Shown: positions 1 to 8,533 of the stretch, piece after piece
Numbering within the stretch: position 1 is the first letter of the stretch
Layout: the number at the start of each line of letters is the position of its first letter
Translations under genes and position numbers: made by a program
Virus genome (UHGV): UHGV-2009704
Source: a virus
DNA: 8,909 bases
Direction: 5' to 3' (one strand)
Notes under the pieces: generated by a model
Told to the model about the DNA's origin: nothing
What the model saw: only the letters and a program-made list of their open reading frames with translations
Databases searched by the model: none

Positions 1-188
1 TAACGTGAAGACTTCATTACCGACAGATTTTCCGGAGAACGTGGTGACGGCAGTTGAAACCAATGTGTTGAGGTTGCACTGTCGCTTAAGCCGAGAATAC
101 GGTATTAAGTAAGATATGGGGTTTGGCCGTTGTTAATGAGCAGGACAATCATGACCGCCAACGACTGGATTCTCCCTTGGTTTATGTT

Positions 189-221
189 GGTGCGCATAAT
201 GTACGACTCGTTATGTTGAAA
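189..221. other. attL: degenerate dif-like site (XerC arm GGTGCGCATAA, 11-nt central region TGTACGACTCG, XerD-like arm TTATGTTGAAA)
   Basis: The first 15 nt are identical to the perfect dif at 8506-8520. The central region is 11 nt instead of 6, and the XerD-like arm matches TTATGTTAAAT at 9 of 11 positions. Confidence 0.7.
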
Positions 222-222
222 A

Positions 223-254
223 GGCCGCTGCGAAAATAGAATCCCGCAGCGGCC
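223..254 (-). terminator. Rho-independent terminator of the minus-strand accessory operon
   Basis: Perfect 10-bp GC-rich stem GGCCGCTGCG / CGCAGCGGCC with a 12-nt loop. On the minus strand it is followed by TTTTCAACATAA, 32 nt past the stop of the 286-990 CDS. Confidence 0.6.
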
Positions 255-285
255 TCTTTAGCATAACGTCATTGTGCGAACCAAT

Positions 286-990
286 TCATAATGCTGCGGG
301 AGCCACGTAATAGACAATCACAAATACAGCTAATGCTCCACCTGCTCTTACCCAGTTTGATATTTTGACTTCTATAAACCCGGGTATAAATGAGACTACC
401 CCAGCAACTGCTGCTGAAAGAATTATTCGAAAGAAAGTGTATTGAAAGTTCGTTGGATTAGGTATAAATATTGCGATTATTATAAAAAGAATAACAAGTA
501 AAATGCCAAAGCTAAATGCCGCTATTCTCTCGTGTGCTTTTGTCAATTTTTCTTTTCCTTTATTGTCAAATCCATATACTGGCATATCTTCATTAACGAA
601 AAGATTCCTTATTTCTTTTGCAGAACGTTTGTCATGGGCTTTTACTATCCTTTGCATTGAAGCAAAAGCAGTGGAGCTTGGTTTAATACTATTATCATTC
701 ATTACCTCTCTATATTTTTTGTAATGAGCTAAGATAAGGTGAAGAACATCAATGCATGTTTCTGCAAGCCATTGATTCCATTGAGTATTATTTAATTCAT
801 CTACTGTTCTGTTATGTGCAGCGCAGTGTTCTAAATAGCCGAAAAAACTGTCTCCACATGAATTCACGGTATCAAAATCACATTTACCAGATAGGTAACA
901 CTCTAATGACTCAGTATATTTTTCATATAAACGCTCAATTTCTTTTTTTTGATTATCAATGATACCGTGAACATCCATATCTGATTTCAC
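286..990 (-). CDS. Hypothetical protein (234 aa) with Cys-rich N-terminal soluble domain and 2-3 C-terminal transmembrane helices; accessory (moron) gene
   Basis: Long ORF from the six-frame track. The C-terminal 70 aa form hydrophobic stretches (IAAFSFGILLVILFIIIAIFIP, FFRIILSAAVAGVVSFIPGFI, ALAVFVIVYYVAPAAL). The start is either GTG at 988-990, overlapping the upstream stop (TAGTG), or ATG at 976-978. A terminator lies downstream. I recognise no homolog. Confidence 0.6.
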   Translation of the reverse strand: MKSDMDVHGIIDNQKKEIERLYEKYTESLECYLSGKCDFDTVNSCGDSFFGYLEHCAAHNRTVDELNNTQWNQWLAETCIDVLHLILAHYKKYREVMNDNSIKPSSTAFASMQRIVKAHDKRSAKEIRNLFVNEDMPVYGFDNKGKEKLTKAHERIAAFSFGILLVILFIIIAIFIPNPTNFQYTFFRIILSAAVAGVVSFIPGFIEVKISNWVRAGGALAVFVIVYYVAPAAL

Positions 991-1265
991 TATCTTTTTT
1001 GTTGAGTGTTATTTGACTGGGATTGAATTTTTGCCAATAGCGAACTTGCTTTCGATGTATTCAATCCATTACAAATCATTCTTGTAATCGGTTTTTTGTA
1101 AATTCGATGAACGATATTTTCAACTTCAGTGATGCTTTCATTGCCACTGAGTTTTTTTATCTCATTGAACATCTCCTCCAATTGTTCATTTGTTGGATGC
1201 CATTTGATTATATCTAATTCTTCCTCTAATGCTTTTTTAAAAAGGAAAACCTGAAAAGATAACAT
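990..1265 (-). CDS. Hypothetical small protein (91 aa) with conserved C-terminal tail GLNTSKASSLLAKIQ
   Basis: ATG at 1263-1265 is preceded by the strong RBS AAGGAAAG. The stop overlaps the start of the 286-990 gene. The C-terminal tail is homologous to that of the upstream small ORF, with synonymous third-position differences. Confidence 0.55.
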   Translation of the reverse strand: MLSFQVFLFKKALEEELDIIKWHPTNEQLEEMFNEIKKLSGNESITEVENIVHRIYKKPITRMICNGLNTSKASSLLAKIQSQSNNTQQKR

Positions 1266-1266
1266 A

Positions 1267-1563
1267 TTACTTTCCTTGTGTTGGTTTAGTAGTGGATTGT
1301 TGAGCTTTTTCTAAAAGCCTTTTTGCTTTAGATGTGTCCAAACCATCTTGGGCAAAGCCTTGTTGCTTATCATTCTGTTTTTGTTCACTTTTTTTTGGCG
1401 TATTCATCAGTATATACTTTGACTCGTTTTGTTTATCTCGATGACTTACTTTTTGTTTAAGTTTTGCACAAACTAGAACGTGCAGTGTTGGTAATACTGC
1501 ACGTTTGTACCATTCGTGGTACTTAATCCTTTTGTTTGGCAGACATGAGATCTTCTGCTGCAT
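1267..1563 (-). CDS. Hypothetical Lys/Gln-rich small protein with conserved C-terminal tail GLDTSKAKRLLEKAQ; start uncertain
   Basis: The ORF ends with TAA at 1267-1269, 1 nt before the next gene's ATG. The C-terminal 20 codons are supported by paralogy with the 990-1265 tail. Alternative starts are TTG 1581, ATG 1563 (overlaps the upstream ORF by about 40 nt) or ATG 1407. Confidence 0.4.
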   Translation of the reverse strand: MQQKISCLPNKRIKYHEWYKRAVLPTLHVLVCAKLKQKVSHRDKQNESKYILMNTPKKSEQKQNDKQQGFAQDGLDTSKAKRLLEKAQQSTTKPTQGK

Positions 1564-1705
1564 CTTTAGAGTAGTTATCAATCAGATAACCTAAAATCTC
1601 TGTCCATGTAATTGTTTTTCCTAGTTTTACACTGGCATTTATAGCCAGTCGTTCTAGTTTCATTTTTCTTTCTTCCGTCACGTTATAAGTCGTGCGCTTT
1701 GCCAT
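1523..1705 (-). CDS. Putative small DNA-binding regulator (60 aa, possible ribbon-helix-helix fold), first gene of the divergent accessory operon
   Basis: Its N-terminus, MAKRTTYNVTEERKMKLERLAIN, has a beta-strand then helix pattern typical of RHH (Arc/CopG-like) proteins. It sits directly next to the divergent control region upstream of gII. The RBS is weak. Confidence 0.45.
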   Translation of the reverse strand: MAKRTTYNVTEERKMKLERLAINASVKLGKTITWTEILGYLIDNYSKDAAEDLMSAKQKD

Positions 1706-3748: not shown

Positions 3749-5029
3749 ATGAAAAGGAAAATATTAATTCTTTCCGCTGTCCTCATTTCTCCTTTTTCAC
3801 ATGCTGAGTCATGGGAAAGCATTACTAAATCCACTTATCAAAGCTCTGCCTACGCTGAAAGTAAGCAAATAACCAATCAGGATGGCTCTAAGTCAACGGT
3901 TTACTATATTGATGCTGCTATGCAGGCCTCCGCTTGTCAGGGTGCTAAATCCAGTGCTCAGAGTGTATTTACTCAGGTTAAACCAACTTATGAGGGTATC
4001 TGGCCTGATTCTGAATTCCGTCTTGTTTTTACTGGTGATTGTACTTACAGCGATTCACCAGGGCAGAAGGATAAATATTGGTCTTTAACGGCTTATATTG
4101 TTGGTGATATTCAGCGTTCTGTTCCTGATGAAAAACCTACTGACCCGACACCAGAAGAAATTTGTGAAGCGAAGCCGCCAGAAGAAGGTGTATTTAATAA
4201 TGTTGATTCATATGATGGTGGTCGTTATATCTACTATAACGGCTGTGAATATGAGGCTACTGGTGTCATTGTTTGTCAGGGTGATGGTACTGTTTGCGCT
4301 GCAACATGGAAGCCTACAGGTACTGTAGCTGACCCCTCTGATAAACCCTCAACCCCCCAAAATGGTGGTGGTGAGTCTGGCGGTGGTGAGTCTGGCGGTG
4401 GTGAGTCCGGTGGCGGTAGTTCTGGCGGTGGTGAGTCCGGTGGCGGTAGTTCTGGCGGTGGTGAGTCCGGTGGCGGTAGTTCTGGCGGTGGCTTTAGTGG
4501 TTCCAGTCTTTCTAAAGGTGATATTCAGTCTGCTATCGAAGGTGCTTCACCCAAAATAGCCAGCGATATTCATGATAAATTAACGGAGAAAGACACTTCA
4601 TCAGATGATAAAAAAAATGCCGATGAACAAACTAGGAATAATATAAATCGTCTTGACGATTCCATTAACAATCTTACGCGGGGGGCTGGCCGTTTTGCTG
4701 ACCCTTCAGGTGGTGATTCTCGTTATGGAAAGGGCGACTCTGAATTAGATGGCGCTTCTACTTTGGCTGATTCTGAATTGGGAATTGAAAAGGATTCTCA
4801 CGGTGCTTTATGGGAAGCATTTTTAAATAAAGGTGCTATGCTGCCTAATTTACCCAATGGTAACGGCTGCTCTGATTTTATTATTTTTCCCGGAGAGGTT
4901 TATCAGATTGATATTGGTTGCGATAAATTACTGACTATTAAAGATGTTCTTTCATGGGTTTTTTATTGCCTTACGTTCTGGTATGTCTTTACTTCTTTAA
5001 CTTCATTGCTTCGCAAAGGGGGTGAGTGA
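3749..5029 (+). CDS. gIII: Minor coat / host-attachment protein pIII (426 aa)
   Basis: Signal peptide [19 protein letters not shown], a Gly-rich linker of ([10 protein letters not shown]) repeats, and a C-terminal membrane anchor IGCDKLL...[17 protein letters not shown] resembling IKe/Ff pIII. Its stop overlaps the gVI start. Confidence 0.9.
4367..4486 (+). repeat. Tandem coding repeats in the gIII glycine-rich linker
   Basis: Two 15-bp units GGTGGTGAGTCTGGC (4367-4396) are followed by three perfect 30-bp units GGTGGTGAGTCCGGTGGCGGTAGTTCTGGC (4397-4426, 4427-4456, 4457-4486). Confidence 0.9.
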
Positions 5030-7807: not shown

Positions 7808-8116
7808 ATGGATTCTTATGGGATTTTATCTGCTCTGGCAGAACGAACGATTACAGCGGAAGAAGCAAAAACAATGACACTTGCAGCCAGAAGTTCTTCG
7901 GCTCAGGTAAATGAAGCATCACTTGCTCTGTTACTGATTGATAATACTCTGGATGCGATCAAAGCAGCTGCCAGTGAAGGGAAAGGATACACTTTACTTC
8001 CTTCTTATGAGATTTCTTTAAAAGCCATTGATTTAGCAGAAGAATTTTTAAGGAAACAATGCGGCTATGTTATTGATAACCAGAATGGCGTAAGGACGGT
8101 CTATTGGTTTATATGA
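7808..8116 (+). CDS. Hypothetical protein (102 aa), accessory ORF downstream of gIV
   Basis: ORF from the six-frame track with a possible weak RBS (GGGGT). It has no transmembrane segment and I recognise no homolog. It lies inside the prophage between gIV and attR. Confidence 0.5.
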   Translation: MDSYGILSALAERTITAEEAKTMTLAARSSSAQVNEASLALLLIDNTLDAIKAAASEGKGYTLLPSYEISLKAIDLAEEFLRKQCGYVIDNQNGVRTVYWFI

Positions 8117-8233: not shown

Positions 8234-8467
8234 ATGCAATTTTTCACATCCAGCGATACTGTAATGTTATGTGCGAAGACCTGCGATCGCTGTGGTCGCC
8301 ATGCGAAGACGGTGGTAGATGACATTGAGTTCAATGAGTTTCTGTCTGTTAATCACTTAGCTGGATACGGTTCAATTTTTGGTGACAGTAATCGCTTAAA
8401 ACTGGATTTATGCCAACATTGCCTGAAAGACGTCCTGGGCCAGTGGATTACGGTCTGTGACCAATGA
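8234..8467 (+). CDS. Hypothetical small protein (77 aa) with two CxxC pairs (possible zinc ribbon)
   Basis: Strong RBS GAGGAG 5 nt upstream of the ATG. Cys pairs are CDRC (residues 17-20) and CQHC (60-63). It ends 38 nt before the dif site. Confidence 0.6.
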   Translation: MQFFTSSDTVMLCAKTCDRCGRHAKTVVDDIEFNEFLSVNHLAGYGSIFGDSNRLKLDLCQHCLKDVLGQWITVCDQ

Positions 8468-8505: not shown

Positions 8506-8533
8506 GGTGCGCATAATGTATATTATGTTAAAT
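8506..8533. other. attR: canonical 28-bp dif site (XerC arm GGTGCGCATAA, central TGTATA, XerD arm TTATGTTAAAT)
   Basis: Exact match to the enterobacterial dif core sequence as I recall it. It is a direct repeat of the left dif-like site. Confidence 0.85.

Follow-up and report, generated by a model that had tools for sequence, protein, structure and literature searches.

Two small proteins with a common conserved motif and a membrane protein are encoded in an exchangeable cargo module of a filamentous prophage integrated at dif

In phage lambda, rexAB is transcribed together with cI and constitutes a prophage exclusion operon. The filamentous phages of the YpfPhi/CUS-1 group are characterized by their gene order and by an integration at dif in which an intact dif is rebuilt at the right end, and they are easily lost as episomes; in YpfPhi, the regulator position is occupied by YPO2273, which was called homologous to the CTXphi repressor RstR (PMC4266046). 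The variable open reading frames (ORFs) adjacent to attL in this group (orf1/orf1a; YPO2271/YPO2272) are of unknown function, and what the terminal ORFs of the prophage do was named as an open question (PMC4266046). The concept of phage hotspots with defence cargo comes from Rousset et al. 2022 (PMC9122126). The present analysis concerns the attL-side position in UHGV-2009704, a stretch of 8,909 nucleotides which holds one complete filamentous (inovirus) prophage and is referred to below, in its whole length, as the window. A cargo module of 1.2 kb (about 293-1453) is found there, directly downstream of the gene of a 60-residue protein that holds the regulator position. It is made of three near end-to-end genes in the same orientation, in the order B (46 residues), A (91 residues) and membrane protein (230 residues), and the products of A and B carry the same short peptide motif. 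The features on which the argument is based are the following.

1300-1347, minus strand: motif in B, D21-Q36, DGLDTSKAKRLLEKAQ (codon table, BLASTP, profiles)
1023-1070, minus strand: motif in A, N66-Q81, NGLNTSKASSLLAKIQ (codon table, profiles, AlphaFold2)
1267-1407, minus strand: gene B, 46-residue peptide MNTPKKSEQKQNDKQQGFAQDGLDTSKAKRLLEKAQQSTTKPTQGK, with polar low-complexity flanks around the motif (PGAP, homologues, PHROG 6875)
990-1265, minus strand: gene A, 91 residues, with a predicted N-terminal alpha/beta mini-domain (1-62) and a predicted motif helix (70-84) (PHROG 6502, homologues, AlphaFold2)
286-978, minus strand: membrane protein, 230 residues (234 residues with the alternative GTG start at 990) (PHROG 5814, AlphaFold2)
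1408-1453, minus strand: cargo leader, the conserved phage backbone being joined at position 1454 (BLASTN)

The resemblance of this locus to lambda rexA/rexB lies in its organization. In both cases the genes are located directly downstream of a repressor-position gene and in the same orientation, so that expression in the lysogen would be expected; one or more small cytoplasmic proteins accompany a polytopic membrane protein in the presumed role of effector; and the whole is an accessory cargo, dispensable for phage growth. The two systems are not known to be similar in sequence or fold, however. The membrane protein described here combines a predicted 145-residue cytoplasmic bundle with three transmembrane (TM) helices, and its one to four small proteins bear a single docking-type motif that is absent from Rex. 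With the attL-side ORFs of CUS-1/YpfPhi, the module shares its position between attL/dif and the repressor-position gene as well as its swappable nature, whereas neither the 46-residue gene nor a shared motif is mentioned in PMC4266046.

The motif common to A and B is gapless and reads [DN]-G-L-[DN]-T-S-K-A-x-x-L-L-x-K-x-Q. In the window, 10 of its 16 residues are identical in the two proteins with 0 gaps, and in each gene it begins 26 codons before the stop. The original prediction of a related C-terminal stretch in two neighbouring small proteins is well supported by three comparisons: BLASTP of A against B gives E=2e-4; their Smith-Waterman score of 49 is never reached in 20,000 shuffles of B, and once in as many of A; and the alignment with hhalign of an A profile (18 sequences) to a B profile (13 sequences) returns a probability of 94.9% and E=4.4e-8 over 33 columns. 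The motif had been placed at the very C-terminus, as the last 16 or so residues, which is not the case, nine polar residues following it in both proteins. Likewise, the description of the two genes as tandem paralogues holds over the approximately 33 C-terminal columns where they are homologous, but does not extend to the N-terminal domain of about 60 residues of A, which B lacks. At the family level, the element of A and B becomes [DNEK]-G-L-[DN]-T-S-x-A-x-x-L-L-x-x-[IAV]. D-G-L-D-x-S ... L is invariant in the 13 B-type sequences, and the invariant residues of the A family are K10, E14, I19, W22, P24, Y56, G67, L68 and L77. The Enterobacterales form is GL[DN]T[SG]xAxxLL, and distant members drift to EG[LIMQ]D[NQY]S[DN]xxxLLx[LM]A.

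It is the peptide that is conserved and not a nucleic-acid repeat, since synonymous change is high, the amino acids are kept and the DNA of the two 26-codon tails is identical at only 46 of 78 positions. The four synonymous codon pairs noticed earlier (GGA/GGT, TCG/TCT, CTA/CTT and TTG/TTA) are all present, among the ten identical residues. When the paralogous motifs are compared, the proportion of synonymous differences (pS) amounts to 0.46-0.88, against 0.16-0.36 for the proportion of nonsynonymous differences (pN). Between E. coli and Dickeya, the corresponding values are pS 0.72 and pN 0.05 for the motif of A, against pN 0.27 for its N-terminal domain with pS around 0.7-0.8, and pS 0.48 and pN 0.00 for the motif of B. 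In both proteins, no other part is as constrained as the motif, and the purifying selection on a protein motif that had been proposed is confirmed by near-saturated synonymous sites with retained residues, within the paralogues as well as between the two genera.

Stops and frameshifts do exist within these tails, but they are confined to cassettes with two B-A pairs and to a few rare frameshifted E. coli variants (P0002, P0008); the intact proteins are seen on some 950-1000 contigs each, the exact sequences being counted on 959 contigs for B, at least 1000 for A and 948 for the membrane protein. In Prodigiosinella (L004, 5165-5377) a stop lies inside the motif of A1, and on a Pantoea plasmid (L005, 5480-5873) both B2 and A2 are frameshifted, the membrane gene being intact in each. 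Because the decay hits one pair of a duplicated cassette while the membrane gene stays, one B-A pair, as in the window, would seem to be enough.

The borders of the module and the gene model of B were established by comparison with relatives. B had first been read as an ORF at 1267-1563, an over-extended frame of 98 residues from the ATG at 1563 (104 residues from the TTG at 1581). PGAP predicts 46 residues; the homologues in Dickeya zeae (L002) and in L012 also have 46, the Dickeya ORF being without upstream extension; and the DNA homology to these two independent cassette relatives stops exactly at 1407, where an ATG occupies 1405-1407 (BLASTN). The real gene is therefore 1267-1407. On the other side, homology to prophages with a different cargo (L018, L020 and a second copy in L001) restarts at 1454 (BLASTN), and the database protein P0010 has the same 36 N-terminal residues as the long ORF fused to the other cargo, so that the long ORF begins with backbone sequence, read in a frame overlapping the regulator gene. 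The 98/104-residue version was rejected on the strength of these results. In this dif-integrated filamentous prophage, the stretch 293-1453 is cargo that can be swapped: alternative cargoes are carried by the same backbone, 98-99% identical from window position 1454 onward (L001 17605-19081; L018/L020/L028 3143-4789). One of them consists of genes for proteins of 140, 91 (ECs_2282 family, putative zinc-binding) and 159 residues. Another encodes a four-TM protein of 140 residues, an A-type protein of 98 residues and a 262-residue relative of the membrane protein, without B. Tandem prophages with different cargos are present in some E. coli genomes.

Within the module, a single nucleotide separates the stop codon of B from the ATG of A, whose Shine-Dalgarno sequence AAGGA is located within the end of B. 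Across the cassettes described below, gene junctions are 4-nt ATGA overlaps or TAA-N-ATG, and this tight packing makes translational coupling likely. The three proteins match PHROG families over the full profile (A, 6502, E=1.3e-63; B, 6875, E=4.8e-67; membrane protein, 5814, E=5.7e-144), all annotated as "unknown function"; as 6502 and 6875 are separate families, the relationship between A and B is missed by this classification. Several A-type proteins (P0001, P0005, P0006 and P0172) are named "S-(hydroxymethyl)glutathione dehydrogenase" in NCBI records, evidently a propagated annotation error, since a protein of 91 residues has no such domain.

Structures were predicted with AlphaFold2 for A (alignment of 6 sequences, mean predicted local distance difference test, pLDDT, of 70.6) and for the membrane protein (63 sequences, pLDDT 86.4). 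The model of A shows a helix (2-16), a strand (19-21), two helices (26-37 and 45-56) and a second strand (61-62), followed by a linker (64-69) with pLDDT below 50 and by the motif helix (70-84). The motif in A can be interpreted as a GL hydrophobic anchor and a [DN]-T-S helix N-cap preceding a hydrophobic face formed by A73, L76, L77 and I80. B is little more than this element between polar flanks, which are probably disordered. In the membrane protein, a five-helix N-terminal bundle (residues 1-145, window 544-978) is modelled with pLDDT above 95, ahead of TM helices at 147-171, 177-197 and 207-225 (residues 147-225, window about 289-540). Residues W67, E73, L79 and R110 of the bundle do not vary within the family. 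None of the three proteins has a signal peptide, and the bundle is placed in the cytoplasm on this ground and because a K/R-rich segment precedes TM1.

Searches for known relatives were uninformative. Scans of the four operon proteins against Pfam, NCBIfam and PADLOC gave sub-threshold matches only (CheA P2 domain, ENOD93, RecX, Csx27), sequence profile searches of the PDB with the alignments of A and of the membrane protein returned nothing, and fold and sequence searches together gave no informative relative of either. The helical bundles of JukB, a jumbo-phage killer effector, and of Cry-toxin domain I were considered as possible relatives in structure and sequence. No paper was found by a literature search using protein accessions and PHROG identifiers. 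The TM part of the membrane protein is a module of about 85 residues (window 289-540, residues about 147-230), observed with 53-60% identity in proteins of unlike architecture (P0096, P0098, P0109, P0112, P0113, P0115 and P0130) and following the pattern ER..AF.FGV.F...LL.A...P.P..FQY..FR.VL.LA..G.....PGFIEV....W.RAGGA.A.F..VY...PA. It is found at the N-terminus of proteins of 363-401 residues, some of them collagen-like and Gly-rich, beside ankyrin repeats, or behind other N-terminal domains, and has no Pfam entry. Its high conservation suggests a functional membrane module and not a simple anchor.

By searching with A, B and the membrane protein and fetching the corresponding loci, about 20 distinct cassettes were gathered. 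Their gene order is constant: 0-2 B-type peptides (42-65 residues), 1-2 A-type proteins (81-112 residues, one being called as 132) and the membrane protein (228-267 residues, TM in the list below). The arrangements observed are given here, 5' to 3' along the operon.

B1-A1-B2-A2-TM: L006, L014, L015 and L027
B-A1-A2-TM: L016 and L021
B-A-TM: the window, L012, Dickeya L002, L023 and the Cronobacter plasmid L041
A-A-TM: Vibrio L030 and Pseudomonas L033
A-TM: P2-like phage L040

The motif element is present in every small protein of the cassette family, that is in up to four proteins per cassette in Enterobacterales. The A-type family is small, with 31 representative clusters among 1.84 billion, and 318 relatives of the membrane protein were found; in the cassettes, the latter is always encoded downstream of the A/B-type genes. 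Throughout the window and all the fetched loci, hidden Markov models of A and B had no matches outside cassettes, and A was never seen without the N-terminal domain of the membrane protein. The only hit in a scan of genome contigs with a single protein was one contaminant-like contig of 536 bp. The 5' part and the motif of the E. coli B are clearly B1-like (67-83% versus 25-71% identity). The possibility that this B is a B1/B2 chimera produced by recombination between motif repeats was considered and found unsupported, its 3' tail being too diverged to be assigned (46% versus 41-46%).

The cassette is also carried by other filamentous prophages, and its distribution reaches well beyond them. 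In the P2-like phage L040, A and the membrane protein are encoded side by side, flanked by the genes for tail-fibre assembly and for the sheath; this is the Z/fun moron site of P2, and the pair resembles moron or defence cargo in its position. In L014, L019 and L027 the cassette lies downstream of cI-type helix-turn-helix (HTH) repressor genes; it is further found on the Cronobacter plasmid L041 and on a Pantoea contig with IncFII-type plasmid replication genes, and is flanked in L006 and L023 by transposase genes, which we take to be IS481-family-like from reading their protein sequences. AbiJ, Abi_2, ParE, PLD, RES, toxin deaminase and Hcp are among its neighbours. In Dickeya zeae, a segment (L002 5434-5528) homologous to the attachment (att)/hairpin segment at window 187-282 lies upstream of B, between an extra 138-residue gene and the cassette, whereas its place in the window is 3' of the membrane-protein gene. 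The Dickeya B-A-TM unit may therefore sit on the far side of the att site or represent a separate small dif-associated element. In a metagenomic locus (L012/L013 1532-3170), a cassette whose membrane protein is 91% identical to that of the window follows two genes made of repeated Myb/SANT-like and sigma-70 region-4-like HTH units, with no filamentous-phage backbone; this is another type of carrier element.

This conservation is most economically read as the mark of a partner common to both tails, which would bind it. The original prediction had named the downstream membrane protein or the regulator as possible partners, and the second is effectively excluded, as A/B and the membrane protein accompany each other in P2-like phages, on plasmids and in islands where the 60-residue regulator is missing; present only in filamentous-prophage contexts, it is not a conserved partner. 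Nor is B the primary partner of the motif, which is kept in cassettes without B. The 3-TM module does not suffice by itself: it is found in unrelated architectures, and three of these genes, when examined (L034, L036 and L038), had no A/B neighbours. The only component always co-inherited with A/B is the N-terminal bundle of the membrane protein. The reading preferred here, to which a probability of about 0.5 can be given, is that the motif is a docking helix through which A and B bind the membrane protein, the cytoplasmic bundle being the best candidate site. The motif would form an N-capped amphipathic helix with an A/LL/I hydrophobic face, and A and B would bind the same site through it, on the helical-bundle domain. 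A would in this way tether its own small domain, a sensor or a regulator, to the membrane protein, and B, devoid of such a domain, would occupy or compete for the same site and thereby tune the membrane protein. This decoy role of B is held to be less likely than the docking itself.

An alternative that is unlikely but deserves to be weighed is that the motif helix belongs to the own fold of A or to an A-A or A-B interface, so that the tails would meet the N-terminal domain of A or one another, B being a mimic that complements or displaces the C-terminal strand-helix of A, and that the membrane protein is not contacted via the motif. The alignment of B to A indeed extends to the hydrophobic residues preceding the G, within the 33 columns, B always immediately precedes an A gene, the stop codon of the one overlapping or abutting the start codon of the other, and the short strands 19-21 and 61-62 of the A model could accept a swapped segment. 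Such an arrangement is nevertheless made less likely by the retention of the motif in cassettes without any B (P2-like phage, Vibrio, Pseudomonas) and by the strict association of A with the N-terminal domain of the membrane protein, and AlphaFold2 gives no confident docking of the helix on the N-terminal domain of A (pLDDT 40-63).

As for function, the context points to a probable conflict module (superinfection exclusion, abortive infection or addiction), which would be expressed from the lysogen, have its effector in the 3-TM module and be a functional analogue of lambda rexAB; in moron and defence systems, the effector role is commonly attributed to membrane proteins. The distribution, from the cargo slot to the vicinity of repressor genes, P2-like phage, plasmids and Abi or toxin neighbours, is as expected for exclusion, defence or addiction. 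More specifically, a widely mobile new exclusion or defence system, in which A would be a sensor or adaptor, the B peptides decoys with the same docking helix and the 3-TM membrane protein the effector, is proposed tentatively. In PADLOC-DB 2.0, A, B and the regulator have no match and the membrane protein only one to Csx27 (E=0.0057, 15 bits). In comparison with the known phage hotspots, the cassette differs in going unrecognised by PADLOC 2.0, and Z/fun is not a hotspot analysed in PMC9122126.

With the same docking, the cassette could instead ensure a toxin-antitoxin-like addiction or stabilisation, the membrane protein being the toxin and A/B labile neutralisers that retain the prophage or plasmid. 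This is a rather improbable assignment, even if several traits evoke type II toxin-antitoxin systems: small genes lie upstream of a larger one, here that of the membrane protein, tightly packed and with stop and start codons that overlap or abut; a predicted flexible C-terminal segment of their products could take up its fold upon a partner; and the carriers are mobile elements, including plasmids and a phage group easily lost as an episome (PMC4266046). The decay of one of two redundant pairs with preservation of the membrane gene would also be compatible with it. The putative toxin, however, is a membrane protein without known toxin fold, two to four "antitoxin-like" proteins share one common motif and have no detectable DNA-binding domain, and no similarity to any known toxin-antitoxin family exists, no type II toxin or antitoxin family having been recognised in the operon proteins with Pfam, NCBIfam or PADLOC. 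The P2 Z/fun location and the Abi neighbours, moreover, fit defence at least equally.

Far less probable still is the identification of the motif as half of a helix-hairpin-helix (HhH) or as a SAP-like element, which would make A and B small DNA-binding phage regulators. On reading the sequence, the spacing G-h-x-x-x-x-A-x-x-h-h does agree with the HhH consensus, and HHH_7 is matched below threshold in 3 of 18 A-type proteins (best E=0.01), but every HhH or SAP model of Pfam stays below its gathering score, the model of A has strand or coil and not helix directly before the hairpin, B lacks the first helix altogether, distant members are acidic in motif and tail (EGLDNSDLxTLL, ...VVDEED), and the cassette occurs outside phages too. 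The HhH/SAP identity was rejected for the first of these reasons, for the missing helix and for the acidic members. A fortuitous resemblance, low complexity or a repeat acting at the DNA or RNA level (recombination or regulatory site) is practically out of the question, for although the proteins are short and K/Q/S/T-rich and the match spans only about 16-26 residues, it is refuted by the shuffles (p about 5e-5 or less), by the profile comparison, by the recurrence of the motif within Enterobacterales cassettes and, in a diverged acidic form, in Vibrio and Pseudomonas A-types, and by the pS/pN values together with the low DNA identity of the tails.

The prophage that carries the module adjoins hipA and is bounded by a dif-like hybrid site and a canonical dif. 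The remaining features of the window are listed here.

189-221, plus strand: attL, dif-like hybrid GGTGCGCATAA-TGTACGACTCG-TTATGTTGAAA with an 11-nt central region, left prophage end (read from the sequence)
8506-8533: canonical 28-nt dif GGTGCGCATAATGTATATTATGTTAAAT, intact and perfect, right prophage end
1523-1705, minus strand: 60-residue protein in the position of an RstR-type regulator, first gene of the minus-strand operon (PHROG 2503)
1766-1739, minus strand: promoter-like site of the minus-strand operon (promoter scan)
209-268, minus strand: strong hairpin followed by UUUU, 3' of the membrane-protein gene (inverted repeat; RNA fold -39.4 kcal/mol, z=-7.2)

Inovirus genes recognised in the window encode Rep (Phage_CRI and G2P_X_C) and a Putative_G5P single-stranded DNA-binding protein, and the identical E. 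coli locus carries major coat, DUF5455, Zot-domain and secretin annotations. The prophage occupies dif, and an intact copy of this site has been restored at its right end. It is apparently of the CUS-1/YpfPhi type, to judge from gene order and dif integration, which match the group of PMC4266046. Its module region was compared as DNA with the phage collection, in near and distant modes, without any match. Of 5,426 complete E. coli genomes, 22 contain the region, always on the chromosome and 100% identical, and the module is annotated there as three hypothetical proteins. The designation of the 60-residue protein as a regulator comes from its position, which is that of YPO2273 in YpfPhi. As the cargo immediately follows this gene on the same strand, and no terminator-like site was found between them on the minus strand, the regulator and cargo genes would form a single operon extending from the promoter-like site to the hairpin, which is probably its terminator. 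This hairpin is built on a 24-nt inverted repeat (209-232 / 245-268), one arm of which is the XerD-arm-like half of attL, and it may also contribute to the attP of folded single-stranded DNA that has been described in this group of phages.

Elsewhere in the prophage, a 474-residue ORF contains at least 8 tandem 15-nt units (4348-4512) resembling the glycine-rich linker typical of pIII-type adsorption proteins; it occupies the position expected for such a protein and is a "hypothetical protein" in the E. coli record. On the attR side, the ORFs 7808-8116 and 8234-8467 belong to PHROG 4115 and 5435, with no function assigned, and the 77-residue ORF on this side shows a CxxC...CxxC zinc-ribbon-like pattern. 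These two ORFs probably correspond to the YPO2280a/YPO2281-type ORFs mentioned in PMC4266046.

This analysis corrects the gene model of B, links two small proteins via a motif under selection, and defines a three-gene unit at an attL-side position that matches the open question on the terminal ORFs of YpfPhi/CUS-1 (PMC4266046). The unit is a self-contained mobile cassette encountered over Enterobacterales, Vibrio and Pseudomonas at sites usual for defence or exclusion genes, and it draws attention to a conserved membrane module and two families of small proteins absent from Pfam, NCBIfam and PADLOC. It is an undescribed mobile cassette of three to five genes with an unusual shared-motif design, for which the docking mechanism is proposed. 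Should a role in defence or addiction be demonstrated for it, the system would be novel and unusual in its logic, several mini-proteins having one docking helix in common and their number possibly serving to tune it. The ORFs on the attL side of the CUS-1/YpfPhi-type prophages, members of which contribute to virulence, have long gone unexplained and would thereby receive a function.

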